Source of the DNA: a virus
Lineage: Duplodnaviria > Caudoviricetes
Length of the DNA stretch: 35,093 nucleotides
IMG/VR virus record: IMGVR_UViG_3300030329_004417
Location: 1-35,093 of that record
Reading direction: 5' to 3' (one strand)
The notes beneath the pieces are model-generated. The model was not told where the DNA came from. It did no database searches and saw nothing but the letters and a program-made list of their open reading frames with translations. A program made the translations under genes and the position numbers. The stretch's first letter is position 1. The number at the start of each line of letters is the position of its first letter. Positions 2,674 through 32,500 of the stretch are shown here, in pieces.

Positions 2674-3098
2674 TCACACTCCTAGGCAGTGTACTGGGTT
2701 TCGCGACCAGCTTTTTACCAAAAATTCTTGGCTATTTTGAGCAGCGGCAGAATAACGCGCACGAACTCAAAATGTTGGAGGCCACGGCAGAAATCCAAAA
2801 GGATCGAGCAATCATCGATGCCCAAATCCGTGATTTGGAAGCGGTACGGGTCCACGATTCTCAGCTTCGATCCGGATACAAATGGATGGACGCTTACCGA
2901 TCAAGCGTACGACCCACCATTACTTATATGTTCATGGCACTTTTCATTTTTGTGGAAATGTCAGCATACATCATTATGTTGAAAACTGGAATGGACGCGT
3001 TTGAAGCCGGTAAGCATCTTTGGAATGCCGAGATCAATGGGCTGTTCGCCGCGATTATTTCATTCTGGTTCGGCGATCGAGGATTTTCGAAGAAATGA
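2670..3098 (+). CDS. holin-like membrane protein
   Basis: N-terminal hydrophobic segment, the motif RSSVRPTITY followed by a TM helix, and C-terminal IISFWFGDR. ATGA overlap with the endolysin. Confidence 0.65.
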   Translation: MITLLGSVLGFATSFLPKILGYFEQRQNNAHELKMLEATAEIQKDRAIIDAQIRDLEAVRVHDSQLRSGYKWMDAYRSSVRPTITYMFMALFIFVEMSAYIIMLKTGMDAFEAGKHLWNAEINGLFAAIISFWFGDRGFSKK

Positions 3099-3541
3099 AG
3101 ATCAATGGCTTCGGACTCGACATAATCAAACGGCACGAGGGCCTTCGACTATCTCCGTATTTATGCCCCGCGTCCGTCCCGACGATCGGCTACGGGACTA
3201 TACGCTACCCGGACGGTACCCCTGTGGCCCTCACCGATCCAGATATCACGGACGAGCGAGCCTCGGCCCTCCTCGACCACGAGGTACGGGGCACTGAGTA
3301 CGCCATATCGGTGATGACGTCTGTACCCATTACGGAGAACCAATTCTCGGCCCTCGTTTCGTTTGCGTATAACGTAGGGGTAAGTGCCACCCGGTGTTCT
3401 ACCCTGATGCGGAAATTGAATCGCGGCGATACGATCGGTGCTGGAAAAGAATTCCCCCGCTGGAAGTTTGGCGGGGGTAAGGTACTGCCGGGTCTTGTTC
3501 GACGTCGGAACGAAGAACAAGCCCTATTTTTTCGCGCCTAG
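3095..3541 (+). CDS. endolysin, GH24 lysozyme
   Basis: HEGLRLSPYLCPASVPTIGYG (E-x8-C-x5-T catalytic triad), QFSALVSFAYNVG, GKVLPGLVRRRNEE. Start ATG 3095 overlaps the holin stop. Confidence 0.95.
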   Translation: MKINGFGLDIIKRHEGLRLSPYLCPASVPTIGYGTIRYPDGTPVALTDPDITDERASALLDHEVRGTEYAISVMTSVPITENQFSALVSFAYNVGVSATRCSTLMRKLNRGDTIGAGKEFPRWKFGGGKVLPGLVRRRNEEQALFFRA

Positions 3542-3544
3542 GGG

Positions 3545-5656
3545 CTACATTAGTCCCTCTTTCAACTTAAGGCCGCGTAGCCTAACAACTACGCGGCCTT
3601 TTCTTTTATTTTTAGCGGGATACCCGGCAGAAGTTAGTTTTTTTCCCCAGTAGACGTCTGTAAAAGGCTTTTGGTATCCACTAACACGTGACCATTCCGC
3701 AAAGTCCGCATAGAGTTCTGGAGAGGGAGAGCCTTCCTCAATATCAACGTTTTCTGTTCGGGTGACAATCCAGCGTCCAACCGGATCATTTTCAAGCATG
3801 TATTCGGCCACAGATTGATTGGACTGCTCGGGAGTAATGAAATTGCCCCTCTCGTAAAGAGTTCTAAGAGAATGAACCCATCTGTTGAGGATTCCAGCAC
3901 GTTCACTGTGAAGTTTGGCGTCGAGGTCGAGATCAGGTTTTTCTACTTTGTTTGGGCAATTGAGGATGATGATTCGTCTTCGCAAAGCATCGCTGTTATC
4001 ACTGGTAGCTGGCATGTCATTAACCAACTCAAGGAAACGGACCGATAATGTAACATTATTTTGGGTTTCACCATACAGACGCCGGATATCAATGGCGTCT
4101 CCACCTGTAATCTTTTTAAGGTAAGTGTCTGAAACGAGGTTAAGTCGAGATTGTTCGCCTGAGATATTAACAAGTTTTCCGACAAGTGAAGTTCTTTTGC
4201 GTTCGTTGTTAAGATCGGTGACTCCAACTGATCCGACACATTCTGGATTATGCATGCTGCGTAACACTCGGGAGACGGTACCTTTGCCATTACCTCCCGG
4301 ACCTCTGAGAAAGAGAAGCCTTTGGAAGGACATGTCGTCAACAAGGGTGTGAGCGCAGTATTCGTCCCAGAATGTAATAGCCTCTGTATCGCCATCGAAA
4401 GTCTCCTTTACGATTTTATCGTACAATGGACATTTTGCATTTTCGTCCCATTCTACATCGAGTTGATGAGTAAGCTCGTGACTAGAATCCCACTTAAGTA
4501 GGTCCCCAGAAACAACGTCGATAGTACCGTTAAGACAGCAAATACGACGCTTTTTAGGATCATCTTTCGCTGCTACGCCGGGGGTTGATCCGAATGATAT
4601 ATTTTCACGCATTGTATGTATAATAGAAACAGCATTGTCAACATCGCGTAATCTAAGAAATTCGTCAGCATCGTACATTCTCCTCTTGAGGTCAGGTATA
4701 TTAACTAAAGGCCAATGTCCGTCTCGGTATGTGCGCAGTTGGCCACGCACGCATGCTACGTTTTCTTGGCCTCCTAGATACTCGATTGCCCAATCGGCCA
4801 TAATTCGTTCTGCAGGGGGTTTCTTCTTCGACTTGGCATTGCCAGTCATTCCTTTTTCTCTAGCGGAATCTATCCATCCTTGGACGACTTGTTCCTCTTC
4901 GGGCCAGTTATATTCTTCACCAGTTCGTTCCACAGCCAAACGCTTAGCACGACTAACCCTACTATGAATATCGAGGTCGCGCCAATCGCGGGCCACCATG
5001 AACGCAACTGCGGAGACGCAGGTATCATGAGTATTCCCGCCCCCATCAACACCAGCCCAATGCATGGTATTGAGTGCCTCAAAATGTTCGTCTTTGTCGG
5101 TACATATCGCTCTAATTTCATCCACAGTGCCGAACGTAATGCTCGGAAGCGAGTCCGATTGAAGGATATCTTGGCCCACCCACTCGTAGGGTTGATCCGT
5201 ATCTGGATGGATAGAAGGCGGAATAACGGTTTGCGCTCCCAGTGCCAAAATTTCCACTGAGGGGGCGCTCTTAGGCTTTCCGTTTTCGTCGGTTCGTCGG
5301 ATTTTTGCATTGGTTAACTCCTTCGGTGCTACGCCAAAAATAGTTAATCCTTTCTTCCCTTTCTTGGCCGGTTGGTCCGACCCTATCGCGTGTTTCACTT
5401 TGTCGACGAGATCATCGTCGTCGATATCCACCGCGATGATCTGGACGCCCTCCGGGCCGTACCCCGTACCGAGGCATAGACCAATGTTGCACCCCGGATG
5501 ATTTGTATCCCACGCGTCGATTTCGTCTGCGGTCGGTATTTCTTGGCAATAACGTTGCCAATGATTGCTAATTGGTCGTTTTAGTCCCGGTTTAAGCGGA
5601 ATGAGACTGATGCCACGCTCCGCGTATAGAGTTGCTAACTCTTTGAACTCCCCCAT
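3545..5656 (-). CDS. Prim-Pol domain primase fused to D5/P4-family SF3 helicase
   Basis: N-terminal bifunctional primase/polymerase motifs (IPL..G.KRP, NIG, VDID, VIPPSIHP). D5_N-like CCLNG region, Walker A GPGGNGKG, LKKITGGD, RRRIII, and a C-terminal winged-helix-like region. Confidence 0.9.
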   Translation of the reverse strand: MGEFKELATLYAERGISLIPLKPGLKRPISNHWQRYCQEIPTADEIDAWDTNHPGCNIGLCLGTGYGPEGVQIIAVDIDDDDLVDKVKHAIGSDQPAKKGKKGLTIFGVAPKELTNAKIRRTDENGKPKSAPSVEILALGAQTVIPPSIHPDTDQPYEWVGQDILQSDSLPSITFGTVDEIRAICTDKDEHFEALNTMHWAGVDGGGNTHDTCVSAVAFMVARDWRDLDIHSRVSRAKRLAVERTGEEYNWPEEEQVVQGWIDSAREKGMTGNAKSKKKPPAERIMADWAIEYLGGQENVACVRGQLRTYRDGHWPLVNIPDLKRRMYDADEFLRLRDVDNAVSIIHTMRENISFGSTPGVAAKDDPKKRRICCLNGTIDVVSGDLLKWDSSHELTHQLDVEWDENAKCPLYDKIVKETFDGDTEAITFWDEYCAHTLVDDMSFQRLLFLRGPGGNGKGTVSRVLRSMHNPECVGSVGVTDLNNERKRTSLVGKLVNISGEQSRLNLVSDTYLKKITGGDAIDIRRLYGETQNNVTLSVRFLELVNDMPATSDNSDALRRRIIILNCPNKVEKPDLDLDAKLHSERAGILNRWVHSLRTLYERGNFITPEQSNQSVAEYMLENDPVGRWIVTRTENVDIEEGSPSPELYADFAEWSRVSGYQKPFTDVYWGKKLTSAGYPAKNKRKGRVVVRLRGLKLKEGLM

Positions 5657-5657
5657 T

Positions 5658-7028
5658 TTACCTCCTAAAATAGTCGATGATGGATTGCGCCACGTTACTC
5701 TTATGTTGCAGACATTTAATAATATCTATTTCTTCTTCTGTCCCAATGAGATCGATATAAAGGACGGAATCGTTTGTTTGTCCGTGTCTATGGATTCGAT
5801 CTTCACTCTGTATTCTGTCGTCAAGGCTATAATTGTTTTCATAGTAGACTGCCGTTGCGCATCGATTGTCCTCAGTACCAAGTAAAGTGTGCCCGTATTT
5901 AGCACTTCGCACCTGACAGATAATGATGTCAGCTTCGCCAGTGTTGAACTTGAACTTCTCAGCTTCGATGTCCTCATCTTGCATCCCTCCAGTGATGAAC
6001 GAGTAGGGAATTTTCTTTTTGTCCAGCGCGTCGAATATGTCCTGAATCGAGTGGCGGTAGTGGGCATTCACCACGATTGGAGTATCGCGCGTCTCATACA
6101 ATTCAAGCAGCAGGTCCAGTTTGGGGTTTTTACCAGGAATTTTAATTGGTTCCCCTTCTTCGGAATTTACCCACCCCGAAGAAATTTGCTGCAGTTTCAT
6201 GATTTTGGTGATTACCATGTGGACTTCGATTTCCTCCCCTTGGACGTACGCGATTAGATCGTCGCGCATAGTAGTATAGTGTGCGGTCTGGTCCCTCGTC
6301 AAGTCGAATCGTCTTTCCGTGTAGATTTTCGGCGGGAGATCGGTCCATTCGTCCTTCCTAGCGCGGAACCCCACCTGATCCACCATATTCGCAAGCTCAA
6401 GTTCTCTATCCTTCTTGACGCCAAGCACCTGCTTACCTTGCCACCCGCCCATACGGCAGAAGTAGTTGCGAAACGCGAAATAGTTGGACTTTCCATTGGC
6501 TGACAGGAATGTAAGTTGTGCCCATAAATCGTGGGGACCCTGAACTATAGGGGAACCAGAAAGACAACGACGATATTCCATCAGCGTCTTGCGCTGTAGC
6601 AACCATTTAGTCTTTTTGGCTTTATGATTCTTGATCATGATGCTTTCATCGAGCACCACCATACAACGATAACGATTGATCAACCTATCGACTTCCTCGC
6701 CGCCAGAATAAATCAACGTTTCGTAGTTTATAATAAAAATGTTGGGCATGTCAATAACCGACCCCAGTTCCGGCCAAACCCTGATGTTTGGGTCCATCTT
6801 TAACCATGTTTCTGCTTCTTTGGCCCAGTTTCGCTTTAAAGTGTTAGGGCAAATTACGATTAGAATGTCTACGTCGTGGTTGAGCCACAATTCTAAAAAA
6901 TCGGACAGAGCGACTGCTGTCTTACCGAGTCCCATTTCCATCCAGTAACCGAATTCCCCCCGTCCGCCACACTTATCCAACGCGCGGGATTGAACTTCAT
7001 ATGGGTTACCATTAAGATTCCAAGTCAT
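5658..7028 (-). CDS. SNF2-family (SF2) DNA helicase
   Basis: MEMGLGKT, IINYE, VVLDES, LSGSP and QSEDRIHRHGQ motifs. Confidence 0.9.
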   Translation of the reverse strand: MTWNLNGNPYEVQSRALDKCGGRGEFGYWMEMGLGKTAVALSDFLELWLNHDVDILIVICPNTLKRNWAKEAETWLKMDPNIRVWPELGSVIDMPNIFIINYETLIYSGGEEVDRLINRYRCMVVLDESIMIKNHKAKKTKWLLQRKTLMEYRRCLSGSPIVQGPHDLWAQLTFLSANGKSNYFAFRNYFCRMGGWQGKQVLGVKKDRELELANMVDQVGFRARKDEWTDLPPKIYTERRFDLTRDQTAHYTTMRDDLIAYVQGEEIEVHMVITKIMKLQQISSGWVNSEEGEPIKIPGKNPKLDLLLELYETRDTPIVVNAHYRHSIQDIFDALDKKKIPYSFITGGMQDEDIEAEKFKFNTGEADIIICQVRSAKYGHTLLGTEDNRCATAVYYENNYSLDDRIQSEDRIHRHGQTNDSVLYIDLIGTEEEIDIIKCLQHKSNVAQSIIDYFRR

Positions 7029-7572
7029 CGCTGTTCCTCATCACTTTGTCCGTACCGGCGAGTTGTTTACGCACGGTGTCGAGTATTTTTTGTTTCCTCT
7101 CGTCGTCTCCCTGCAAATTACCAACCGCGCCAATGAGACGTTCCCAGGAAGATTCTTGAAAATTGCCGACCCATGAATTCCCCATCCGTATTTCGTTGTT
7201 GAGGAAGAAGACTTCATCGATCAGGTCCGCGCATTTAACAACGTCTTTATGTTGGTCGCTAAACCTAGGTGCGATCGTTTTAAACGTACTGACCGCCAAA
7301 TTTACGTTCATTCCGTGGTACTTGGTGGGGTCCACTACTTCCCGCTTAAACGGGCCGGGTATGTCCCCGCTGAAAATTTCGTCCCGGTCGTGGTACAGGG
7401 CGACCAAAATACACTCAGCTCGGAATTCGGGCCGGTATCCCATCATTATACAGATTTGATCCGTGTAGATCGATACGAAATAGCTGTGCTCTGCTATGTT
7501 TTGAGTGTTGAGGGTCCGGGCGATGGACCAACGATTAACGAATGCCATGCGGCGATAAGCTTGTTCAAACAT
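7012..7572 (-). CDS. datZ: HD-domain dATP triphosphohydrolase (DatZ-like/YfbR family)
   Basis: RWSI...QNIAEHS...ALYHD.DE..SGDIPGPFK...KCADLID. The RW-x-I and GD.P.P features resemble DatZ, and the gene lies in the purZ cluster. Confidence 0.8.
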   Translation of the reverse strand: MFEQAYRRMAFVNRWSIARTLNTQNIAEHSYFVSIYTDQICIMMGYRPEFRAECILVALYHDRDEIFSGDIPGPFKREVVDPTKYHGMNVNLAVSTFKTIAPRFSDQHKDVVKCADLIDEVFFLNNEIRMGNSWVGNFQESSWERLIGAVGNLQGDDERKQKILDTVRKQLAGTDKVMRNSDDLES

Positions 7573-7602: not shown

Positions 7603-8076
7603 CTAGTCTTCGTCGTGAAGAAACGGGTTGATCAGTAGATTCGACGCTTTGATTTCGGCCACCGGCTCGTAGAACTTGAGGCCAGTTTCGCTGTCGATCC
7701 ACATTTGGCTGATTTCCTGCCCGTCCAATACAAGACCATTCGGCTTGCGGCGCTTGAGGTTCGATCGGTTGATCTTATATTCTTGACCATCGACCGTCAC
7801 CGTTGCGACTTGTTCCGATGCGTCTTTGGGGATGGATTCTGCCGGGTCCCGATCATTGAACTGGGACCAAGCGTGATCCCGTTCGATTTTGGTTACCCGA
7901 TGGTCGATGTCGAACTTGTCTTTCAACAAGGCCGTCATACGGTTGGCGTCTGGAACGCCCGCACGGGTGAAATCGTCTTCGCTATCGGGGTTCATTTCCC
8001 CAATAATCGCAATCATGTTGCCCAATAGGGCCTCTTGACTAAGTTCGTCGGCCATTAAATAACTCCTTTCCGACAT
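7603..8076 (-). CDS. hypothetical protein with small helical module (DFT..G.P...L...VT..ERD.AW)
   Basis: 157 aa ORF packed between the MazG-like and HD genes. Confidence 0.55.
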   Translation of the reverse strand: MSERSYLMADELSQEALLGNMIAIIGEMNPDSEDDFTRAGVPDANRMTALLKDKFDIDHRVTKIERDHAWSQFNDRDPAESIPKDASEQVATVTVDGQEYKINRSNLKRRKPNGLVLDGQEISQMWIDSETGLKFYEPVAEIKASNLLINPFLHDED

Positions 8077-8296
8077 TCCATGCTATCATCATAGCAAAAT
8101 TCGCGACATCTGCCGCCTCGAATAAGACCTCAAACGGGTTTTCCCGCTCAATGGCCTCTTGCAATTCATCGACTTCTTCTCGCAGACGAATAAAGAGGGT
8201 ATCTAGATCGGTTTCCTCCCACCCACCTTTATGGTCGTTTCGACGAAGCTTAAGCTCCATCGCCTCTGCAAATACGTTTATTTCGTGTCGCGCCAT
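8039..8296 (-). CDS. MazG-like all-alpha dNTP pyrophosphohydrolase (MazZ/DUF550-like)
   Basis: LREEVDELQEA...FEAADVANF carries the ExxE...ExxD metal-binding motif; overlaps the purZ stop. Confidence 0.75.
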   Translation of the reverse strand: MARHEINVFAEAMELKLRRNDHKGGWEETDLDTLFIRLREEVDELQEAIERENPFEVLFEAADVANFAMMIAWNVGKELFNGRRT

Positions 8297-9303
8297 TTTT
8301 TAACGTCCTTTCTAGTGGGACCGTACCCTAAGTATACCTCATCAAAGCGACCCAAGTCCAGTGATCGTAAAAATCCCTGCTCCTGTGCTGTCGATTGAAA
8401 GTAGTTCATGAAGTTGACGAATAGATAGTTGGGTTGAATCTTCTTCACAGCCCGTTCGAATTGGTAATAAGAAAATGTCGCTATGCGCCGCACTTTCTGC
8501 GTTACGGTGGTCAATTCTTCTTCTTGCTGGATTTTGTCGAAATCGATCTCGATCGAATCCTCGAAGAAGGGGCCAGATTTACCTCCCACCCGAATTGGAT
8601 AGGTACGTATCACCATACAAACATCGCCCAGTGCGGAAGGATGCGCGCCGATATCGGACAACGCTTGTGCCGGTGTTACGTCCCGGCTCGTGCAATAAGG
8701 ATAGTGGCTAGAATTGAGACTCAATCCGAATCCTTGCGCTACTTCCATTAAAGCGGGCATTCGGTCCAAAGTTACGGACCAATCTACTTCATCGAATTTG
8801 GTGTCATAATTGGCGTGGGAAAACCCTATTTTTCCCCACTCCGCTAACAATTGTCTGTAGGGGAGTTCATCGTAACGACGCATAATCTTCCGGGTAAATG
8901 CGGCACCGGTTCCACTTGCCGTCGATCCACGTGATTTGGCTATGTCAGCCTCGGCGTCAATATCGGCCTGTGTAATCACGGCTATATAGGGGCTTATAAC
9001 TATAGTACCTATCCTGTTGGCGTGCTCCGCGATTTCATCTGCCAATTGCTTGGGATTAATAACTGATCCGGGTCCAATATAAACATCGTCTTTTGCGTAG
9101 CGGTGAATTGCCGATGTCGGCAGATGGTGGAGTATTACTTTCTTGTCGCTGAGATACGAAGTATGGCCAGAATTTGCTCCATTGGTCGAACAATGCAGGG
9201 CTTCGCCTATCTGCGGAGAAAAGTAGGAACTAACCAATCCCTTGCCACACGACCCAAACTGACCATCGATAATCAAATTGATCTTACCTCTTTTTCCGAA
9301 CAT
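8278..9303 (-). CDS. purZ: PurZ, N6-succino-2-amino-2'-deoxyadenylate synthase (adenylosuccinate synthetase paralogue)
   Basis: DGQFGSCGKG (Ser in place of the PurA catalytic Asp of GDEGKG), NSGHT, EVAQGFGL...YPYCTSRD, RTYPIRVG, TTVT..VRR and NFMNY. RBS AAGGGG before ATG 9303. Confidence 0.9.
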   Translation of the reverse strand: MFGKRGKINLIIDGQFGSCGKGLVSSYFSPQIGEALHCSTNGANSGHTSYLSDKKVILHHLPTSAIHRYAKDDVYIGPGSVINPKQLADEIAEHANRIGTIVISPYIAVITQADIDAEADIAKSRGSTASGTGAAFTRKIMRRYDELPYRQLLAEWGKIGFSHANYDTKFDEVDWSVTLDRMPALMEVAQGFGLSLNSSHYPYCTSRDVTPAQALSDIGAHPSALGDVCMVIRTYPIRVGGKSGPFFEDSIEIDFDKIQQEEELTTVTQKVRRIATFSYYQFERAVKKIQPNYLFVNFMNYFQSTAQEQGFLRSLDLGRFDEVYLGYGPTRKDVKKWRDTK

Positions 9304-9613: not shown

Positions 9614-9980
9614 GTTGATGTTTCTCTCCCCGCCCACGTATATACGCAATTTGTCCGTCACGGGGGTGACTGCTATTCCAGTCGGTTGAGACGTAGATTG
9701 TGTCGGTTGATCCTTCGGTGACGCAGCAGCACCATCCTGCTTTTCCGCCATGTTTTTGCTCCTTTGCTATGAACCGCCGTTGGAGTTGTGAAAGTCCAAG
9801 GGCAATATTTGCCGACTTTCGAAACTTGAGTTCGATAAATACACTAGGGTAATCGGGATGCTTAACGTAGAGATCAGGAATCCCACCCCTAAAGCGATCA
9901 GAAATCTTAAAAACGTGACACCCTTGGTCTTGCATTGCAAGGCGCAACTGGGTTTGAAACTGTTTTTCATTCGTCGGCAC
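9582..9980 (-). CDS. VRR-NUC / PD-(D/E)xK nuclease (Holliday junction resolvase-like)
   Basis: NEKQFQ...GIPDL...FIELK...LSQLQRRF. GTG start at 9980 with GGAGG RBS. Confidence 0.8.
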   Translation of the reverse strand: MPTNEKQFQTQLRLAMQDQGCHVFKISDRFRGGIPDLYVKHPDYPSVFIELKFRKSANIALGLSQLQRRFIAKEQKHGGKAGWCCCVTEGSTDTIYVSTDWNSSHPRDGQIAYIRGRGEKHQHGAILQILTG

Positions 9981-11760
9981 CGAACGTAGCCTCCTTCCAA
10001 CTTGCACCCTCACCAATATCAACTGCCATCGGCACGGTGCCTACTTTCAAAGTTAAATCGATTACGTCACCGGGACCAAACGCCATCATCCGTTCTTCGA
10101 TTTTGGCTTTCGCCTCCTTGATTTCCGCAATCGGGATCGAAAAGTCTAAACTATCGTGAATTTGCAACAATGGGGTATACCCCATGTCGTCGCATTCTAC
10201 CATTTTTAATTTACACATGTCCGCGCACGTACCTTGTACGTAACGGGACGACGACCGATAGGTAAATCTCTTCTCTTTCCCTGGGAACCGTTGCTTTCGA
10301 CCAAGGATAGTTTTGGCGTACGGCACCGGGTGGCGCGATTCACAAATAGATTTGGCTTTGTCCAGGAACAGCTTAACCTCTGGGAACTGGTGAAAATACT
10401 GTCGTTTGTACAATTTGGCTTGTTTTTCCGTACACCCTAGAGACGCGGCCAATTTCGCCACACCAATCCAATTGATCAAGCCCATATTCATCCGCTTGGC
10501 AGTAGTGTCGCGATCGACATTCATCATTTGGGCTACTGTCCCGTGCATGTCAATAGGTGGATCGGACAAATACCCTCCGATGAGTTTTCGGGATTTAGTG
10601 TAATAAGAGAAAATTCGGTACTCTTGTTGGCTGTAGTCCATGGAGAGCCATCTTTCTCCTTCATCCGGGACGAACACGGACCGAAATAAGACAGCAAGCT
10701 CCTTATTGTGTTTAGGTACTTGCTGCATGTTAGGTTGGCTAGAAGATAGTCTTGCCAAGGAGCCTTTATCCTCAAAATTAAAAGCCTCTCCCCTGAGTTG
10801 GTTAAAGTTAGTGTGCACTCGCCCATTGTGGATATGTTTCTCAGCAAGCGGACCAAGGAAAGAGTTAACGAGGTTGGTGAACTTCCGGAGTGTGATAATA
10901 TCTCGGCCCTTCTCTCTTTCTTTGAGCCAATCTTCTGTAAACGATGGATTGCCCTTTGGCGTGAGATTCCATTCATCTTTACAATCTGCGAAATATTCTT
11001 GCATCTGGATGGAGCTTCGTGGATTAAAGCCATCGGGTAGCGACTTAGAAACCCGTTCAATCTCACTTTCGACATGTTGTCTAACTTGTCCCAGACGTTG
11101 TTCATCAACACGCACTCCTCGTCTTTCCATACGGAAAAGAGTTCGGAGTACTCGGCATTCGAGGTCGTGTACCGTACGTAGATCGTCTTCATCGATCAAT
11201 CTCTGCTGTTCTTCCCAAACTTGCCAAGTCGATGTACCGTCGCCCTTCGCGTACTCGTGCGCAAGGGGGTCTTGGGCATCAAGCTTCCAGTAATTGCCCA
11301 TTTGGCGTCGGTTAGCTTCACCACCGAATTCTTCTGCAAGATGTTGATAGAGGGCTTCACCCTTTTTGACCTGCACACCATGATACTTGCTCACTCCGTC
11401 TAGTGAAAAAGAGGGCATATACTCGTTAATAAGGCATGCGTTGACCATAGTACATTCCACTGGGCCTTTAAACTCAATGTTATGATTAGCACTAAAGTGG
11501 AGATCAAACTTAAGGTGGTGACCGACAATGCGAATATCGTCACGTGCCGCAATTTCGGTCTGAATCCACTTTTCGACCTGACCGGCATCACAGTTATCGC
11601 CTTGCCCATGCCTAACCGGGAAATAGAAAGTGTCGTCTTCTCGGGGGCCAAGGGTAATGACGTACCCGCAGACTTTTTTTGTTTTCCAATCCAGTCCAGT
11701 AGTTTCTGTGTCATAAACAACAGTTGAAACATCTTTAAGCCTTGGTGGATCGAATTGCAT
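9967..11760 (-). CDS. family A DNA polymerase with 3'-5' exonuclease (candidate DpoZ-type)
   Basis: Exonuclease motifs DTETTG, HHLKFD and YAKGD. Polymerase motifs RLSSSQPNMQQ, DYSQQEYR (A), AKRMNMG (B), VQGTCAD and IHDS (C). Confidence 0.92.
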   Translation of the reverse strand: MQFDPPRLKDVSTVVYDTETTGLDWKTKKVCGYVITLGPREDDTFYFPVRHGQGDNCDAGQVEKWIQTEIAARDDIRIVGHHLKFDLHFSANHNIEFKGPVECTMVNACLINEYMPSFSLDGVSKYHGVQVKKGEALYQHLAEEFGGEANRRQMGNYWKLDAQDPLAHEYAKGDGTSTWQVWEEQQRLIDEDDLRTVHDLECRVLRTLFRMERRGVRVDEQRLGQVRQHVESEIERVSKSLPDGFNPRSSIQMQEYFADCKDEWNLTPKGNPSFTEDWLKEREKGRDIITLRKFTNLVNSFLGPLAEKHIHNGRVHTNFNQLRGEAFNFEDKGSLARLSSSQPNMQQVPKHNKELAVLFRSVFVPDEGERWLSMDYSQQEYRIFSYYTKSRKLIGGYLSDPPIDMHGTVAQMMNVDRDTTAKRMNMGLINWIGVAKLAASLGCTEKQAKLYKRQYFHQFPEVKLFLDKAKSICESRHPVPYAKTILGRKQRFPGKEKRFTYRSSSRYVQGTCADMCKLKMVECDDMGYTPLLQIHDSLDFSIPIAEIKEAKAKIEERMMAFGPGDVIDLTLKVGTVPMAVDIGEGASWKEATFGADE

Positions 11761-13938: not shown

Positions 13939-13974
13939 ATCCTAGCACAGGGGGTGGTGCGGGTCAAGAGGAAG
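13939..13974 (-). promoter_or_regulatory. sigma70-type promoter for the replication operon
   Basis: TTGACC (13967-13962), 17-bp spacer, TAGGAT (13944-13939) with extended TG. Confidence 0.7.
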
Positions 13975-14353
13975 TTAATGTCCCGCTAAAAGGACCAGAA
14001 GGACCAACAGGACTATCGATTGCACTACCCACTCGTTTTTCCTTAGCCAAGTGGTCCGTGAGTTGTCGTCCAATACGCCTCGATTCAAGTTTCGCATCTT
14101 CTGTCCTTATTTGTGGTTGAATGACTGGTGCGACGTCGGAATCCAGGATCGCTTGCGCTATTGCTTTCAGCGCAGCGTTGCCCCTATTTGCTTCGTTCAT
14201 CATACCCTCGATCGTGGTTGCTTCCACTTCATAAGTGGTGTAATGATAACCGCAGCTGTGACACATTCTGCGACGCCGTATCGCTGATTCGGTCGGCCTG
14301 GAATCCTTAACACGGGATTGAGGCGATCCGCAGTTCGGACAATATATACTCAT
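13964..14353 (-). CDS. NrdR-like zinc-ribbon protein (no ATP cone)
   Basis: CPNCG...SRVKDSR....[18 protein letters not shown] matches the NrdR N-terminal Zn ribbon. Confidence 0.8.
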
Positions 14354-14367
14354 TACTCTCTCCTATG

Positions 14368-14632
14368 TTGCTGTAGTGGGTGTGTAGAGTATCGTAGTGG
14401 GTGCATACTCTACACCAGAGGCCGCGTCCGTCGCGGGCTGACGGCCAGTGTAGTGTATGTAGTGGGTCTCTCTCCTTATTTTTTGGGAGAGAGGAGGTCC
14501 TATAGGGGGGAGGCTGTCCCTTAGGGAGATGTGGCGTCTCATACTCTACACCCACTACATACACTACAGGCCGCGTCCGACGCGGGGTCTGGGCGTAGTG
14601 GGTGCGGCGACGCACCCACTACATACCCTACA
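14368..14632. repeat. iteron/palindrome element L
   Basis: Multiple TGTAG(T/A/G)G and CTACA units. CCGCGTCCG(T/A)CGCGG at 14422-14436 and 14571-14585. 19-bp perfect inverted repeat at 14449-14467/14550-14568. Confidence 0.9.
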
Positions 14633-14633
14633 G

Positions 14634-15278
14634 CTAGGCCGCTTTCTTCTTTGCGGCTTGCTTTTCGCGCTGTTTCTTGAGGTTTTCGAGACGCTTCTTC
14701 TCGTTCTCCTTCTTCTTTTTCTCGTGTTCATCACGAGTTTTGTCGAGCGCCGATTGGTTGCTTTTCGCCGCTGCGGCTGGTGCTTTCCCAACGATCGTGA
14801 CCTTCTCGCCTTTGTTTGCTTTCCGGCGAAGCATGTTGCCGAGATTCATCCGTTTCATTCCCGGATTGAGTTTGTTCTTAGTCCACTTGTCCCAATTTTC
14901 CTTGAGGCCATTTTCATTAGCCACCGCAGAAAGTTCGGCAGAAGTCAAGCCCATCAGGGCCTGCGCAACATCGTCACCGTTGTTGATGGAAGGCGCGCCG
15001 GACTCGGTTTTCACGGCGTTGTCGACTTCGTACTTGTCGCGATACGAATCGTCGACGGCCTTGAACCGCGTCGATTTGATCGTCACCTGCACTTCGTCTT
15101 GCGGATCGCGTTCCAGCTTGACCTTATACACGCCGAGTTTCTTGTCTTCCGACACAATGAGGCCTGGTCCCTTCGGAGTGTGGACGCGCCGATTTTCGTA
15201 TTCGGACGTGCCCCACACTGGCTTGGGCTTTTCTTTGAGCTTCTTATCGTCAGTTATCGCTTTAGCTTCGTCGGCCAT
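14634..15278 (-). CDS. Lys-rich hypothetical protein with NNGDD...LNPGMxRMNLGN domain
   Basis: AAAGGAG RBS before ATG 15278 (frame open to 15419); paralogous to 16393-16785. Confidence 0.75.
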   Translation of the reverse strand: MADEAKAITDDKKLKEKPKPVWGTSEYENRRVHTPKGPGLIVSEDKKLGVYKVKLERDPQDEVQVTIKSTRFKAVDDSYRDKYEVDNAVKTESGAPSINNGDDVAQALMGLTSAELSAVANENGLKENWDKWTKNKLNPGMKRMNLGNMLRRKANKGEKVTIVGKAPAAAAKSNQSALDKTRDEHEKKKKENEKKRLENLKKQREKQAAKKKAA

Positions 15279-15437
15279 GTGAATTTCTCCTTTGTTGACC
15301 AATTTCCAAATTTTGACGCGAGCGTGATAAAGAGATTCGAATCTTCGCGCCGCTCCGATAAACTCTAATTCTTCGTTGCACTCGTCGAGTGATAGTTCTT
15401 GGATCGGTTTATCTAACATAATTTAACACGTCCTTTG

Positions 15438-15665
15438 TTACCCGTCAATAAGAATCTCACCGTACCCGTTGCACAGCCCGCATTCCTTATCGTGGCCTTT
15501 GTAGCGATACTTCACCCCACCTTTAGTGAAATATTTAGTCTTGAATGTGTGCCCATACCCTTTACACTTCTCGCAGCGGCACTGGCCGTTCACAATGTGT
15601 GGAACTTTTCCCATCTGCATTCGAAGATCGGAAGGTGACGCGCGCCGCATTTCGAAATACCTCAT
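15438..15665 (-). CDS. small protein with DnaJ-type CxxCxGxG zinc-finger pair
   Basis: CEKCKGYG ... CGLCNGYG; ATGA-coupled to the upstream gene. Confidence 0.65.
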   Translation of the reverse strand: MRYFEMRRASPSDLRMQMGKVPHIVNGQCRCEKCKGYGHTFKTKYFTKGGVKYRYKGHDKECGLCNGYGEILIDG

Positions 15666-15952
15666 CCTTTATACCCCCATGCGCGCAGTTCTTCGACCAA
15701 TTGGCCAAAAGAAGGGACTTCGACTTGATTCTCGTATTGCCAATCCTCGGGGAATTCTTTGAATCCCGCAACGTCCATAAGCTGCTTTTTGGTGTAACGT
15801 TCGTTCAGACGAATCAGCGTCAGTCCGATCTGGTCGTCGTTCATGTGGCGCACTACTTTCACGATCTTGAGGTACTGCGCGTTCGTGATCTTGAATGTTG
15901 CGCGTAGGGACTGCTCGCCCCATTTGGCTGAATGGAATAAGAACATTACCAT
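15662..15952 (-). CDS. hypothetical protein
   Basis: AAGGAGGG RBS; packed in the early operon. Confidence 0.6.
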   Translation of the reverse strand: MVMFLFHSAKWGEQSLRATFKITNAQYLKIVKVVRHMNDDQIGLTLIRLNERYTKKQLMDVAGFKEFPEDWQYENQVEVPSFGQLVEELRAWGYKG

Positions 15953-15970
15953 ACCCCTCCTTTGCTCCTC

Positions 15971-16309
15971 CTATACGAGCGTCGAAATGTTGTCGAGAAT
16001 GCCGAGACCTTTCGCGAACACACCGTCTTTTTTGGCGTGCATGACGATGTGGCGTCGGAATCCACGACGCGGCAGGTGAAGGAACGGCAACTCAACGTCG
16101 CACGTGCGTCCATCTTTAAGTACGCCGTGGCAGTACGAAACGTCCCAAACGGGGTGGCCCGGATCGCTCAACAAGCGAAGCCGGATCACGCGTTTCAGTC
16201 GATTGTCGCCCCACGAAACGCGACCCGCGTACTTCTCTTTGTCGTAGAAGTCGTCGTGCGAGTAGGGCAGCGGGTTCGTCTCGTTGATTCCGTAGATTGC
16301 GCAAGTCAT
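15971..16309 (-). CDS. hypothetical protein
   Basis: AGGGGG RBS; 112 aa; early operon. Confidence 0.6.
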   Translation of the reverse strand: MTCAIYGINETNPLPYSHDDFYDKEKYAGRVSWGDNRLKRVIRLRLLSDPGHPVWDVSYCHGVLKDGRTCDVELPFLHLPRRGFRRHIVMHAKKDGVFAKGLGILDNISTLV

Positions 16310-16392
16310 GATTACCCCCTATCTAGAACTCTCTACCCCGAAAGCCCGGCAGGGCGAACCATACCGGGCTGGTCGGGTGGATGGGTTCCGGT

Positions 16393-16785
16393 TTAGACCG
16401 GCGCGTCAGCGAAAGTGCGACCGCAGATCGTTACGTCGTTGCCTTTCTTGATCGCGCCGCGAAGGACGTTACCGAGGTTCATCCGCTGCATACCGGGATT
16501 CAAGTGGCCCCAGCGATCCAGAACGTCGATCCCCGCGTCTTTTTTGGCGCTCGGGAGAACATCGGCCTCGAAGTCCAACTCCTTGAGGAACGTGGCGAGG
16601 TCGTCACCGTTGTTACCCGTCTTGCCGTACTGCCGCTTGTACTTCTCCGGGACGACGCTCTTGGGGGTGGGCGCTTCGTCGTCTTCGATCGACGGGTCGG
16701 CGTCCAACTCGACGAGCTTCTGTGCGTCGGCTTGGTCTTTGGTCAGCTTGGATTCGGTCTTCGCGTCTTTCGTTTTTTTCGCCAT
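16393..16785 (-). CDS. hypothetical protein with NNGDD...LNPGMxRMNLGN domain (first early gene)
   Basis: AAGGAG RBS; paralogue of 14634-15278; directly after the promoter-like site at 16.85 kb. Confidence 0.75.
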   Translation of the reverse strand: MAKKTKDAKTESKLTKDQADAQKLVELDADPSIEDDEAPTPKSVVPEKYKRQYGKTGNNGDDLATFLKELDFEADVLPSAKKDAGIDVLDRWGHLNPGMQRMNLGNVLRGAIKKGNDVTICGRTFADAPV

Positions 16786-16842
16786 GGTGTGGCTCCTTCT
16801 CTACTCTCTGGTTCGGGGCTGTGTTGCCCCATCAACCCAACC

Positions 16843-16878
16843 AAAAAAGCACAGCCGGGTTGCCGTGTCAAGAGGAAG
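16843..16878 (-). promoter_or_regulatory. putative early promoter
   Basis: Perfect TTGACA (16871-16866). Shares CTTCCTCTTGAC and CTGTGCT, at identical spacing, with the 13.95-kb promoter. The -10 position is atypical (TTTTTT). Confidence 0.55.
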
Positions 16879-17272
16879 ACGAGGGGCGCGACACTCTGTC
16901 GCATGTTGGCGACGAGGCGGAGCCGGGACGAACGGCGCACGAGCTGCGTTGCGGGACGCTTGACGGTGCTCAACGAACAGCGTAGAGTAACGGGATGAAC
17001 GCCGCTAGACAGCCAGAAGAGCGAACCGGGTGAGTACGTCACGAACCCGCAACCATGCCGGGCCGCTGTGTTGCTCGTCCCCGTTCGAGCCGCATTCGCC
17101 TTGCGCAGCGCGACGCCGGAAGCCCGACAAAGGGAAAAAGGAACGCGCGTTCTTTTTGGAAGGACCCAGCGCCGCCGGAACGGCATCGATTTTTGGACTA
17201 AGCGCCATCAGGTCACTTGATATATATTGTACTGACACGATGCGAGATATTACATTTTTCCATGCTTTCTGT

Positions 17273-17555
17273 TATGTATGTAGAGTATGTGTAGGGGGTA
17301 GGACCCAGCGCACCCACTACACGACAGCCCGCGTCCGTCGCGGCCTCTGGCCCTCTCGACCTATCTGTAGTGGGTGTAGAGTATCGGAGGCGCACTCCTC
17401 CCGGTCGCTCTCCTCTATCATCCTCTATATACTCCCCCATGAGAGAGGGGGTAGGACCCACTACATACCCTACATCTGGCTCTGGCCCGCGTCCGTCGCG
17501 GGCTCTGGTGTAGGGGGTACATACTCTACAGTACTCTACACACCCACTACAGCAA
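17273..17555. repeat. iteron/palindrome element R, at the early/late strand switch
   Basis: Same TGTAG/CTACA units as element L. CCGCGTCCGTCGCGG at 17329-17343 and 17487-17501. 17532-17555 is the exact reverse complement of 14368-14391. Confidence 0.9.
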
Positions 17556-27863: not shown

Positions 27864-29551
27864 TGGCGGATAAATTATCCACTTTTCAGGAACCTAGCGG
27901 TCGTCGCGGTCGCGTAATTCAACCGTTTAATCCGGGGAATGTAGCCATTCGTCCGGATTTCAGTTCGTTGTCGCAGAGTAATAATACTCTGGTTAATAGT
28001 ATTGTTGGATTTGTGAAGCGGAAAGAAGCCGAAGGCGAGCGATTTGAAAAAGTTCGTTTCGGTAATATGGGTGCACAGGCTGCGGCCAACGCCGATTTAC
28101 AACAAAAAGACCTCCAAAGCTTGTTTTCTCAGGATGGCGGTTTTCGTGCCCACGCATTTAATCAGTCCCTTATCGCGGGTCTTTCCGCCCGATTTAAGGC
28201 TCAAGTATCGACTGATATTGATAAATTTAAAAATAATCCCAATCTTCGTGCTAATCCGGATGCGATGGGACGAGCTATTTCCGATTATCGGGGTAAATTG
28301 CTGGAGCAAGCCCCTGCTCAGTTGCATCCCGATATCATCCCGTTTTTGGATTTACATACGGGGACGGCTCAAAATTCGAGCATAGTGGGACAGCAGAAGG
28401 CTGTTGTCGATGCTAATAAGGCGCAGTTCGAACAATATAAAAAGTCTCAATTGAATACTATTCTAAATCTTCAAGAGGAAGGTCAGTTCGATGCGGCGGG
28501 TAAATTGGAGAAGGAATACTTCAATGAACTCGATAAGCAGGGCCCTCTTGAATTTGGAGGTACAGGCGTATACACTGCTAAAGGTCTTGGCGACCAAAAA
28601 TTGGCGTTCCGACAGCAAATGCGAATTTCTGCTCTTCGTGGTGAGTTCCGCCGTATTCCCGGTTTTTCCGGTAAGATGGCATTCCTAAATCGTTTGTCCA
28701 AGCCGGGCAATAAGGAATTGGACGATCTGTTCACTCCGAAAGAACAGGCGTCTATTCGATCCGAATTGCGTACTATCGTAACTCAAGAAAATGCTGCGTT
28801 TAATTCTTCTATTGCCCGTAGAAATTTCTTAATGAAGGAAAAAGAACGTACTGCTATTAAAGCGTATATTGGCGTAAAATCCGATCCGGATTCTTCGGAT
28901 GAACAATTGAATGCTTCTTTACAGAATGTGTATGCCAATGCGTTCGGTCTGGATACCATAAAATTTGTTGATAAAGAAGCAACAGATATTAACGATGAAG
29001 CGGCGGATCAGGAGTATACAACCCGGTTCTTTGGTCCCGACGAAAAAGCTGGGAATGATCTGACAATCAACGATGTTGTTGAAGATTTTCGTTTGGGCCG
29101 AATTAAGGCCCCCACTGCTCGGCGGTGGATCGACAAGCTTGAAAACGCTAAAGATTTCCCGTTCCTCAAGTCCAGCGGGTGGAAGCAAGCCATTAAGTTT
29201 CGGAATAATGACTTTCCGGTAAACAAAAATCTCATGGGCGGATTTTCTAGCGCGCAATCGCGTAAGAATGCTGCTGTCAGGACGGAGATCGAAGAACAGT
29301 TGTTTAACGTTATGAAGGCCAATCCCGATAAAGACCCGGTTGCTGCGTATCAGTCGATCAAAAATCAACGGAAAGCTGCTGGGAGTCAGAAGACTAGTCT
29401 TGTGGATAAACATTTTGGCACTGGTGATGCAGTAAATCAAAATTGGGTGCAAAACCACAAGTCTTATCGGGAAGCAAAAAGGCTCGGAATTGTCAGTCCA
29501 GATTTGCAGTCTAAGTATGACGCATATTGGAAAGAAAAGGCGGGATTGTAA
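27863..29551 (+). CDS. internal virion (ejection) protein
   Basis: Helical 562 aa protein in the gp15-like position; TAATG-coupled. Confidence 0.65.
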   Translation: MADKLSTFQEPSGRRGRVIQPFNPGNVAIRPDFSSLSQSNNTLVNSIVGFVKRKEAEGERFEKVRFGNMGAQAAANADLQQKDLQSLFSQDGGFRAHAFNQSLIAGLSARFKAQVSTDIDKFKNNPNLRANPDAMGRAISDYRGKLLEQAPAQLHPDIIPFLDLHTGTAQNSSIVGQQKAVVDANKAQFEQYKKSQLNTILNLQEEGQFDAAGKLEKEYFNELDKQGPLEFGGTGVYTAKGLGDQKLAFRQQMRISALRGEFRRIPGFSGKMAFLNRLSKPGNKELDDLFTPKEQASIRSELRTIVTQENAAFNSSIARRNFLMKEKERTAIKAYIGVKSDPDSSDEQLNASLQNVYANAFGLDTIKFVDKEATDINDEAADQEYTTRFFGPDEKAGNDLTINDVVEDFRLGRIKAPTARRWIDKLENAKDFPFLKSSGWKQAIKFRNNDFPVNKNLMGGFSSAQSRKNAAVRTEIEEQLFNVMKANPDKDPVAAYQSIKNQRKAAGSQKTSLVDKHFGTGDAVNQNWVQNHKSYREAKRLGIVSPDLQSKYDAYWKEKAGL

Positions 29552-32500
29552 TGCCGGACGTAAACGCATATAGTCAGTATCGGGAAGCAGTAGAAGAGGA
29601 GTTTAATCTCCCTTCCACGCTGGACGAGGTACGTGAGTCTTTAGGTATGCCACCCGTCGCCGAGGCTGAGGCGAGGGAGGGTGCCTCTCCGGACGGTACC
29701 ACCATAGCAGCCCCGACGCCTGACACCCCCTCGACGGGCGACGGCGGCGGACGGACGGGCGTATCCGACGAGGAGGCTGGTCGGGTGATCTCGGAGCTTA
29801 ACGATCCCCGTCGAACTATAGTGGACGATATCAAAGACTCGGCAGGTGCGAATTCTGATCAAATTTTTCCTTCCGGAAATAAACTTCGGCATGATTTGAT
29901 TCAAGCTGGCGTGCCGGAAGCTTTGCTTAAATCGAATTTGGGTGATATTGGCTTAGCTGATTTAATCCCAGGTGTTGAAGCCGGGTTGTCATTTAATGAT
30001 TTGCTAGAAGCGCAAGAAAGACGCCATAGGGGGGAGGATTCTTCGATGGTGGAGGAAGGGGGTCTTGCCATAGCAACGGTACTTGGCACGATCCCCTTCC
30101 TTGGCGCTCCTGCGTCTAAAGTCGTAAAAGCAACTGCTAAAGCAGCGGGTAAAGGGCTAAAAGCAGTTCGAGACGTATTAGGGTTTAAATCCAATGCCGA
30201 CAAGCTTCGCGATGCGATGGACACCGCTATCAAAAACGAAAACGGCAACATCATTGGTTCTCAAGCCCATATTGCTACTCTTAATGACGATAATCTCGAA
30301 GTAGTGGGTCGATATCAGGGCGATTCTTCGGACATAAATAGCGCCTTGCGGAACGGTGATCCCACGTTCGATAAGTTTGCTAAAAGTTTAGATACTATTA
30401 TTGCTGAACGAGCGATGAATCAAAATGTAGTAGTTTATCGCGGGATTGATCAAAGTGTAGTGGGGAAAACTCTTCCGAAACCGGGCGATACTATTATCGA
30501 TCCTGCGTTTGTGTCCACTTCTTACAGTGTTCGGATATCCGACCAATTCACCCAACATGTTGGCGATAAGCGAGTAATTCTTAAGATCAAAGTCCCGGAA
30601 GGGCAAAATGCTCTTGATTTGTCCGCTACTAGAAATGTTCGCGATATTTCTGGAGTTCGCATTGAGGATGAATTCGAAGTACTTCTTCCCCGCAATACTC
30701 CGATCAAAATTGAAGATGTCCATGAATTTGAAAATCAGATACTTATCAAGGGTGCAGTCGGCGATGCGGCGGGTAAACCGGACTCCGATTTCAGGATTTT
30801 CGGCCATCAAACGCTGTCAGGTGGTAAAGATCGTGGTCCATTGGTACAGGAAGCACGAGGAGAGGAAGCTACCAAGCGGACTTTCCTTGGCGACGCTCAC
30901 CAGTTATTTAAGGATCATATAGTCACCCCTGCCGCTATGACGGCCAAAATGGACAAGGGCGACAAAGTTCAAGTTTATGGTGTTGCTCTTGGAGAAGATT
31001 CTCTGGACGAAGGTATTTTGGCGGCGGAGAAAGCAGGAGGTACTACTCACGTTGAGTTTATGTTGGGGGACCGGGAATTTGTTCTTCCGATTGATCATGT
31101 TATTAAAAATTTCGATTCCATTAAGGGACTGGAAGCTTCGCAAAAAGAATTCGGCCAATTGCAAGGATTTTTGGGGTGGGCCGGTAGAGACGCGGGTAAA
31201 TATCTTCCCGACAAGACGCTGAATATCAGTCTTCTTCGTATGAACACGACTGATGATATCAAGGCGGCAGCGGCGTCTCTTGGTGATATTACTCGGGCAG
31301 GCGGTAAGAAATTTACTGAGTCGATGGATGAAACAATTTCTCGTTTGTCCGAAGTAACCGGCACTGACATAGCTGTTTTGAAAAAGCGGGCAGAACAGGC
31401 TAACCGTTTGGCGGTTGAAATCAATGATACTACCAACCTTATGACTGCAGCAGCCTACCAACTGCGGTCTATGGCCCGTATATATGACCCTATGACGGCA
31501 ACTGCGTCTGACAAGCTTAAGATCATGCTAGAAGTCCAGGCGCTATCGGAAGTGTTTAAGTATGGCGAAATGATTTTGTCGGCACCGGGTCGAGCGTTGA
31601 ATATACAAAAGGTAGGTGGCGCAATAGATTTTGATAGTGTGGCTCGTGTTAATGAAATGATTGGTTCGTTTGGCGGCGAAAAAGCTATTGACGATCTGAT
31701 GCGAGCGTTAGGTACGGCGGAAAACCCTGTTGAGATTGCAAAAACGGTTCGACCCTCTGTGCTTTCTCGGGCAGGCGATGCGGTCATGGAATTCTGGGTT
31801 AATGGGATTCTGTCCGGCGTCAAAACTCTTGCTGTTAATACGGTGGGCAATACTCTATTCATGGGATGGCAAGTACCGGAGCGCGCAATTCAAGGGATGG
31901 TGGGTGCTATTCGTGCCGGTGGTCGGAAAGACGTAGATCGTGTGTTTGTTGGTGAATCCATTGCCATGATGTATGGTACCGTTAAGGGGCTGAAAGACGG
32001 TTTGCGTTTGGCAGGTAAAGCATTTCGTACGGGTGACCCGCAATTCGACAGTGTTGCAAAAATTGAAATGCCGGAATTGAAGCGGGCCATATCGTCTGAT
32101 CAACTTGGCTTGACTGGGATTCCGGGTATTGCGGCTGATGTATTGGGCGCTGTAATTCGTACCCCCACCCGCGTGATTATGACGCAGGACGAATTATTTA
32201 AGGGTATCGCTTCATCCATGCAGAATAATGCCCTTGCTTATCGGACTGTTGTGCAGAGTGGTGGTTCACTTACCAATCCTAAGCAAGTAATCGACAAAAT
32301 GAAGTCCGTACTGGATGATGTTGATGCGTACCCCGCTATTCAGAAGGATTCTCAAGCTTTTGCCCAGTATGTCACATTCCAAAAGGAATTAGGGAATATT
32401 GGGCAGGATATTCAGAAGAACGTGGGCCGATTCCGGTTGTTGGGAATCCCTGTACTGCGTTTTGTTCTCCCCTTTATTCGTACGCCCACGAACATCTTTA

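Follow-up and report, generated by a model that had tools for sequence, protein, structure and literature searches.

AA/TT-free islands in phages with a Z-genome gene set: a putative cis-acting structural element

Many phage genomes with the genes for replacing A by 2-aminoadenine (Z) contain several sharply bounded segments, of about the size of one protein footprint, from which the dinucleotides AA and TT are entirely missing, and these islands are very probably a cis-acting structural element linked to the Z genome. They came to light in a stretch of 35,093 nucleotides, here called the window, for which an earlier note had proposed that coding sequence is overlaid by a cis-acting signal of DNA structure, to be seen in connection with Z-DNA; this proposal is well supported by null models, by the link to purZ and by the residues missing from a lysozyme. 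The islands are maintained at the expense of amino-acid choices in whichever gene occupies the spot. They are a clear case of protein sequence choice overridden by DNA mechanics, and they bear on how host enzymes bend, open and relax a genome with three hydrogen bonds per pair. They form a widespread element of Z-genome phages that apparently has not been described before: no description of AA/TT-free islands in Z phages was found in the literature searched, which covered few subscription papers, and the accessible parts of the Z-genome papers (PMC12884076, PMC8515928, PMC13128860) deal with the enzymes and with base calling, mentioning neither dinucleotide-free segments nor a cis-acting adaptation to the mechanics of Z-DNA.

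Gene set and AA/TT-free runs of the window

The window is a podovirus-like phage genome with two transcription arms. The leftward replication arm encodes a Prim-Pol/D5 primase, an SNF2 helicase, DatZ, a MazZ-like gene, PurZ, a family A polymerase and genes resembling gp32-34 of Pam3, and the rightward virion arm terminates in a holin and an endolysin. PurZ (8278-9303, minus strand; PHROG 1211) has Ser at the position of PurA Asp13, the replacement that marks PurZ according to PMC8515928; it carries a DGQFGS motif, with S18 invariant in our alignment A1. Adjoining it are a DatZ-type dATP triphosphohydrolase (7012-7572, minus strand; PHROG 7076, Pfam YfbR-like), a MazZ-like nucleotide pyrophosphohydrolase (8039-8296, minus strand) that gives a weak Pfam PRA-PH match and is found in most purZ relatives, and a family A DNA polymerase, likely DpoZ (9967-11760, minus strand; Pfam DNA_pol_A). 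This combination, by which PurZ-type Z genomes are recognized, is the gene set (PurZ, DatZ, MazZ, DpoZ) of the Z-genome systems of phiVC8, SH-Ab 15497, S-2L and ZP6, and judging by it, Z probably replaces A in the window's DNA. Within the window there is no exact terminal repeat, and the public-run contigs show no pile-up of contig ends that would mark genome termini.

AA and TT together have a frequency of 0.156 over the whole window (15.6% of all steps). Six runs of 83-282 bp are free of both, the next longest being 50 bp; recomputation found the 169-bp stretch and the other runs where the earlier note had placed them. Three of the runs are coding: the 169-bp island lies within the endolysin gene (3162-3330), a 157-bp island in the N-terminal part of a large internal virion protein (29642-29798), and a short run of 83 bp in the part of the primase-helicase gene that encodes its Prim-Pol domain (5401-5483). 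The non-coding islands are made up of four copies of a ~150-bp unit, each with a palindromic GC core and arms that carry TA hinges every 9-12 bp. Unit 1 (14369-14491; core 14411-14443) has phased GTAG/CTAC steps in its arms and is AA/TT-free over 14369-14476 (108 bp). Unit 2 (14522-14643, 122 bp; core 14560-14592, 149 bp after that of unit 1) shares 10 bp with the end of the gene at 14634-15419, and units 3 and 4 form the 282-bp island (17273-17554; cores 17318-17350 and 17476-17508, 158 bp apart) in a divergent region ~1.2 kb upstream of terL; tandem unit starts in the window are accordingly 149 and 158 bp apart. The segment 17432-17555 is an inverted copy of 14368-14491 (124 bp, 74% complementary), with outer ends that are exact over 23-24 bp.

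Genome-wide nulls, whether Markov models or block shuffles, did not reproduce this set of runs, nor did nulls for composition or recoding, an outcome in favour of the earlier note. Among Markov genomes of orders 1, 3 and 5 (150 each), the longest run averaged 63 bp and reached at most 114 bp; local block shuffles (3 x 300) gave a maximum of 143 bp, 157 bp being reached in none, and runs of at least 80 bp arose about 0.5 times per genome, so the 83-bp run is the weakest member of the set. Shuffling the endolysin island's own bases gave an AA/TT-free segment in 0/200,000 trials and synonymous recoding of its peptide in 0/100,000. The exact log10 probability of being free, given the peptide and the codon use of the genome, is -7.0 for the endolysin island, -5.4 for the virion-protein run and -4.1 for the primase run. 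Chance, local GC and codon bias are ruled out as causes of the window's runs by these shuffling and recoding nulls. An assembly artefact is ruled out as well, because two other assemblies match and the frame is that of an intact GH24 lysozyme (Pfam PF00959): loci L001 and L172 have identical runs, and public-run contigs span the endolysin island without listed differences. The public runs holding the window's sequence are marine, and no RNA dataset holding it was among those listed.

The cost to a protein can be read from the endolysin itself (3095-3541, plus strand; GH24, 148 aa, Pfam PF00959). Over its 55 whole codons within the island, C24-P78, K, N and F are absent, all three Glu codons are GAG and all three Leu codons are CTC, just as the earlier note had read them. 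Homologous lysozymes retain such residues: at least one K/N/F is present in the segment in 116 of 119 homologues, with a mean of 5.7, while outside the segment the window's lysozyme has 18 against a homologue mean of 19.5. No column of the segment has a K/N/F majority among the 119 homologues, and the conserved N82 and F84 follow directly beyond the island's end, suggesting that the island occupies a part of the gene able to spare K/N/F.

Islands in phages with and without purZ

Islands were scored as run length x AA/TT frequency - ln(expected count), with a threshold of at least 5.5 that was set after the first data had been inspected. Among whole records, 29 of 38 with purZ have islands versus 0 of 13 others, and in a further set 6 of 8 purZ records versus 0 of 11 reference phages; the pooled counts, 35/46 against 0/24, bear out what the earlier note had expected of relatives with and without purZ, and overstate independence because many purZ records are kin. 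For ViI and phiW-14, which stand among the reference phages beside T7, lambda, Mu and P22, the first 60 kb were used; we take the reference phages to lack purZ and presumably to carry the base modifications ascribed to them. The link also holds for de-duplicated loci of at least 10 kb, a comparison that leaves out shorter loci and near-duplicates: at a GC of 0.40-0.60, 47/89 purZ loci pass versus 1/25 purZ-less capsid/helicase relatives (Fisher 5e-6), and over all GC values 50/115 versus 2/51. When ten dinucleotide classes were compared, no class other than AA/TT passed in more than 7/89 purZ loci.

The island-bearing phages include ZP6, K228 (one island cluster only) and OH, as well as sewage and other isolates (OH, Kokobel2), and comprise long-tailed and short-tailed phages, both types also including island-free ones. 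Eleven of the 46 purZ records are island-free at the threshold, e.g. DMU1, PSA28, G007, G014 and G024, and GC-rich genomes (S-2L, Wayne, Ghobes, G049-G051) give low power. When 69/123 ORFs of the island-free Z phages G024, G007 and G014 were compared with Pfam for a topoisomerase of their own, no such family was matched in this part of the ORFs, only a GHKL ATPase domain in G014.

Might the islands arise merely as a side effect of intergenic repeats and of protein segments that are repetitive, GC-rich or rich in Ala/Gly/Pro? For some runs this is so, as L240, L417, G042 17541 and G005 7904 encode repeats, several linkers have a log10 P(free|peptide) of just -0.6 to -2.5, and the purZ-less loci L045, L006 and L070 have runs of comparable excess. 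However, the coding islands in the window's clade have values of -4 to -8, which largely refutes this explanation for the window, islands lie within conserved enzymes (lysozyme, polymerase, primase, helicase), and the purZ-less sisters G049-G051, which have the same virion genes, are island-free at the threshold, albeit at higher GC and hence lower power. As a general account it is very unlikely. The islands offer a sequence-only marker for Z genomes, including contigs without purZ.

Another companion of purZ is the phrog_8941 family, a putative accessory protein that could also serve to mark Z genomes. It occurs in 36/38 purZ records, often in 2-4 copies (range 1-4), versus 0/13 others, and in 2/4 further purZ records versus 0/11 reference phages; 58 of 50,697 GenBank phage records match it, and their host genera and counts mirror the proteobacterial purZ list. 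The window encodes two paralogues, at 14634-15419 and 16393-16785 (both minus strand), the second comprising a small helical domain whose fold weakly matches SAP/LEM-like ones. The family's model (pLDDT 82) reaches Z 3.5-4.8 to SAP/LEM-like (helix-extended-helix) domains, under the tool's noise level; neither a PDB sequence comparison nor Foldseek gave a match for the domain, and its Atlas matches all stayed below 0.9. A protein of this kind could coat Z-DNA at ZZ/TT steps, in which case the islands would be segments kept free of it as footprint-sized access for other machinery. The strict exclusion of a single step would suit a sequence reader, the family's tie to purZ is close, and its genes flank the non-coding islands in the window and in relatives. 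Yet DNA binding is only putative with fold matches under significance, and the family does not track islands among purZ phages, being present in the five island-free phages named above and missing from the island-bearing G005; we consider this explanation unlikely.

Anatomy and placement of the islands

Of 112 non-redundant islands, 76 are 120-179 bp long, the lower side of this distribution being trimmed by the detection threshold, and their mean GC is 70%. Their edges are sharp: AA/TT density regains 0.8-0.9 of its mean within 20-40 bp outside, and the flanks are of average composition. The genes that bear islands vary by lineage and include those for lysozyme, primase, polymerase, helicase, a PurZ extension and virion proteins. 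Relative to AA/TT-free shuffles, and with L240 and L417 left out for their protein repeats, TA steps are enriched 1.53x, GA/TC steps reduced 0.76-fold and GTAC found 121 times versus 61. CC/GG steps are doubled (0.24 versus 0.12), which speaks against a protection of key segments from thymine-dimer damage, as these steps are photodimer sites as well. Such protection would have suited the lack of TT on both strands that an AA/TT-free run entails, and the marine origin of the runs holding the window, but the segments are not common essential sequences, islands are also found in the sewage and other isolates, and the link to purZ would go unexplained; UV protection is extremely unlikely.

Shared sequence or structure beyond composition is limited. 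A universal motif was rejected, as lineages have none in common and the centres of islands are not enriched in any; CGTCC takes a central place in five window units and several islands of G026-G028, though not across lineages, and its reverse, GGACG, stands at the centre of the endolysin island. Single-strand folding was likewise rejected as a common property, the median z of 92 islands being -0.4: a fold is present in the non-coding units of the window, with z of -2.3 to -3.4, whereas the endolysin island has no stable fold (z = 0.1 and -0.4). [quoted passage not shown] Deformability lies above the 90th percentile in 87/102 islands, a measure that is partly circular and uses A-DNA values; the endolysin island, at 4.05 versus 3.95 for its own AA/TT-free shuffles, shows no excess. 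Phasing is confined largely to non-coding units, where gaps of 9-12 bp between GTAC/GTAG/CTAC steps account for 12/23 in the four units of the window, against 3.9 expected, and for 9/14 in five units of G026-G028, against 2.0 expected, i.e. 21/37 over nine units, versus 1/6 in the window's three coding islands. Periodicity tests, which leave out islands with internal repeats or below 100 bp, found no 10-11 bp GC oscillation in 64 repeat-free islands (power ratio 1.06 at 10.5 bp), and a first hint of 10.5-bp periodicity was largely gone once repeat-containing islands were excluded. GpC steps give a weak periodic signal, at 1.54 against 1.17 for controls and with an amplitude of 3-4%, in one of many tests; an anti-phase of TA and GC was looked for in the islands and not found.

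Along the genomes, the position of the virion-protein island is kept in G026, G027 and ZP6, and its sequence is not conserved. G027 has an exact copy of 41 bp common to two islands 12.8 kb apart (G027:C1:4335-4488 and 17089-17259), one of which is the virion-protein island. Seven islands follow one another at intervals of 5.5-11.3 kb in G008, and those of ZP6, whose termini were determined with PhageTerm according to PMC8515928, lie at 12.7, 25.4 and 37.4 kb of 38.1 kb, which corresponds to thirds of the genome and its end. Over 14-18 records, however, even spacing is modest (Fisher p 0.007-0.08 by threshold). The pattern of ZP6, together with the similar distance between the island upstream of terL and the virion-protein island (12.4 kb in the window, 12.8 kb in G026), could be taken to mean that islands act as hinges that flex, or as marks for a pause, while a stiff genome is packaged or ejected, and that their places are set by the distance from its end. 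However, gaps range from 4 to >30 kb among phages, tail type does not sort the presence of islands, and a passive hinge would have no need of dyad units with phased arms, making this quite unlikely.

Relative to genes, the islands of 29 records lie closer to strand switches than expected by chance, both to convergent ones (Fisher p 0.007) and to divergent ones (p 0.003); the switch points were called automatically, with the window's divergent point put at 14.5 kb instead of ~17.3 kb. The end of the endolysin island lies ~210 bp, and its centre 293 bp, from the head-to-head convergence of the two arms. In 15/31 records (4.7 expected) the start of the primase has an island no more than 3 kb upstream, ten of them within 1 kb and all of these from one related group, and terL has one within the same distance upstream in 8/21 (3.1 expected); the endolysin island has no such position relative to terL. 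Iteron-type origins combine phased short repeats with an AT-rich unwinding element, and pac regions lie at or upstream of terminase genes. The window's units resemble both in having phased repeats around a core, and islands share the position upstream of primase or terminase in many records. It is possible, though doubtful, that islands are loading or initiation platforms, either for the phage primase-helicase at an origin and secondary priming sites or for the small terminase where packaging starts, and that the repeats phased at 9-12 bp serve as iteron-like binding sites. The common core and inverted arms of the four non-coding units point in this direction, as do CGTCCGTC, which is present in four islands and absent from the rest of the window, and the switch of the GC skew at ~17.5 kb. 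What speaks against it is that the GC-rich islands have no AT-rich or otherwise easily melted element, that no motif is common to lineages or found at island centres, that the intragenic copies are free of repeats and of single-strand folds, and that island-bearing phages have unrelated primases and terminases; placement upstream of operons is predicted equally by a supercoiling model. The unwinding role suggested in the earlier note is disfavoured for islands averaging 70% GC, and of the roles listed there, protein loading fits best.

Proposed bendable sites for a DNA-wrapping enzyme

The exclusion of AA and TT from both strands, the sharp edges, the ~150-bp unit and the lack of a common motif or fold point to a physical property of double-stranded DNA over the length of one protein footprint. 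We lean towards islands being protein-wrapping sites of some kind; that they are putative bendable landing sites for host gyrase on stiff Z-DNA is our more tentative proposal. Gyrase reportedly fails on Z-substituted DNA, going by the title of Fernandez-Sierra 2015. Z-substituted DNA is stiffer (PMC8599871), gyrase has a footprint of ~150 bp and selects GC-rich SELEX binders with short A/T linkers (10.1101/2025.10.21.683783), it favours flexible, GC-rich DNA (10.1101/2025.10.21.683783; PMC13284261), and TA in GTAC is the most deformable step and central in the gyrase-bound G-segment (PMC13284261). Island lengths and unit spacing agree with one footprint of about 130-150 bp, and the TA and GTAC enrichment, the phased steps of the non-coding units and the nearness to strand switches count in favour of such sites as well. 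It is the conjunction of stiff Z-DNA, a ~150-bp wrap, a preference for flexible GC-rich DNA and the reported failure on Z-DNA that favours gyrase sites; a literature search for PurZ together with gyrase gave 0 matches.

Under the gyrase proposal, the DNA of island-bearing phages would be Z-substituted and ZZ/TT steps would be the strongest hindrance to bending. Selection would clear ZZ/TT within one enzyme footprint, cut the Z content and add TA hinges. Gyrase as the reader might then relieve positive supercoils where transcription arms converge, as at the endolysin island, and provide negative supercoils close to promoters and to the site where replication begins, places at which triple-bonded DNA has to be opened. 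The islands could in this way form a second mechanical code, an idea we put forward with reserve: with Z-DNA too stiff for host gyrase, footprint-sized segments free of ZZ/TT would be kept every 6-18 kb, recoding or extending resident genes and being copied to new places, possibly with Z-specific phrog_8941 proteins marking the remaining genome.

The strong gyrase site of Mu and the sites of pSC101 and pBR322, as described in PMC13284261, resemble the islands in their gyrase-footprint size, in the DNA mechanics through which the islands would likewise act, and in a core with phased flexible arms, as seen in non-coding units. The Mu site, however, is single and central, lies in normal DNA and is AA/TT-rich, with 37 AA/TT steps per 150 bp (97th percentile of Mu) and 43% GC; islands are several per genome, AA/TT-free, ~70% GC, often intragenic and tied to purZ, and gyrase action on them is putative. 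The Mu site also sits at the 2nd percentile of the deformability score on which islands score high, so this score misses a known gyrase site. This low score and the AA/TT richness of the Mu site are the strongest evidence against the gyrase proposal, and they fit it only on the assumption that A-tract bending is lost in Z-DNA. The arms of the islands lack a 10-11 bp GC oscillation, and the purZ records without islands, the single cluster of K228, the modest evenness of spacing, the coding islands without phased hinges and the ordinary deformability of the endolysin island likewise speak against it. The strict absence of one step is explained equally well by mechanics and by the avoidance of a sequence reader. 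We do not class the islands as strong gyrase sites. Nucleosome-positioning DNA of the Widom 601 type is ~147 bp long, and natural nucleosome sequences use phased AA/TT. Similar to Widom 601, the islands are GC-rich, of about this length and, in the arms of the non-coding units, have TA steps roughly one helical turn apart; unlike nucleosome DNA, they have no histone to serve, lack AA/TT wholly and are unphased where coding.

If the islands are read through their mechanics, they predict that ZZ/TT is the step most important to the mechanics of Z-DNA, and they suggest a design rule for synthetic Z-DNA replicons. Exact island coordinates in the cultured phage ZP6, whose marine host, Alteromonas macleodii, is harmless, make their function testable.

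Several observations stand beside these results. One island (G026:C1:17876-18024) lies within an extension of purZ whose frame, at 481 codons, is ~130 above the usual, and in the polymerase genes of G001 and G038 a loop close to the N-terminus contains islands. At G002:C1:7075-8831, K228 38137-39309 and G005:C1:1776-8600, three to six islands are clustered in an early or terminal region instead of standing as single units, and the records L081 (41006-41188), G038, G036, G012, L118 and L171 start or end in or near an island, which may reflect genome ends or assembly breaks. In the island-free purZ phage G014, a GHKL (gyrase B/HSP90-like) ATPase domain is part of a protein of 542 aa (L306:3334-4959).

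Within the window, the inverted copies at 14368-14491 and 17432-17555 border a 2.9-kb block of early genes, a possible invertible segment. An inversion of 14369-17554 was considered for a loose end at 17555 in run X4 and rejected, as this end matches the sequence flanking the inverted copy at 14368, and the repeat, which lies on the same contig, accounts for it; no joint of the inverted form was among those listed, and L172 is oriented like the window. Scans for related loci with single proteins gave 0 for PurZ and 6 for the polymerase, and a primase search among GenBank phages gave distant matches only. The gene directly downstream of unit 1 (13964-14353, minus strand) has a zinc ribbon at its N-terminus that resembles the one of NrdR. 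Residues 251-402 of the internal virion protein (29527-33699, 1390 aa) make up an ADP-ribosyltransferase domain (Pfam PF03496), which hints at an enzyme injected for host takeover, comparable to T4 Alt.
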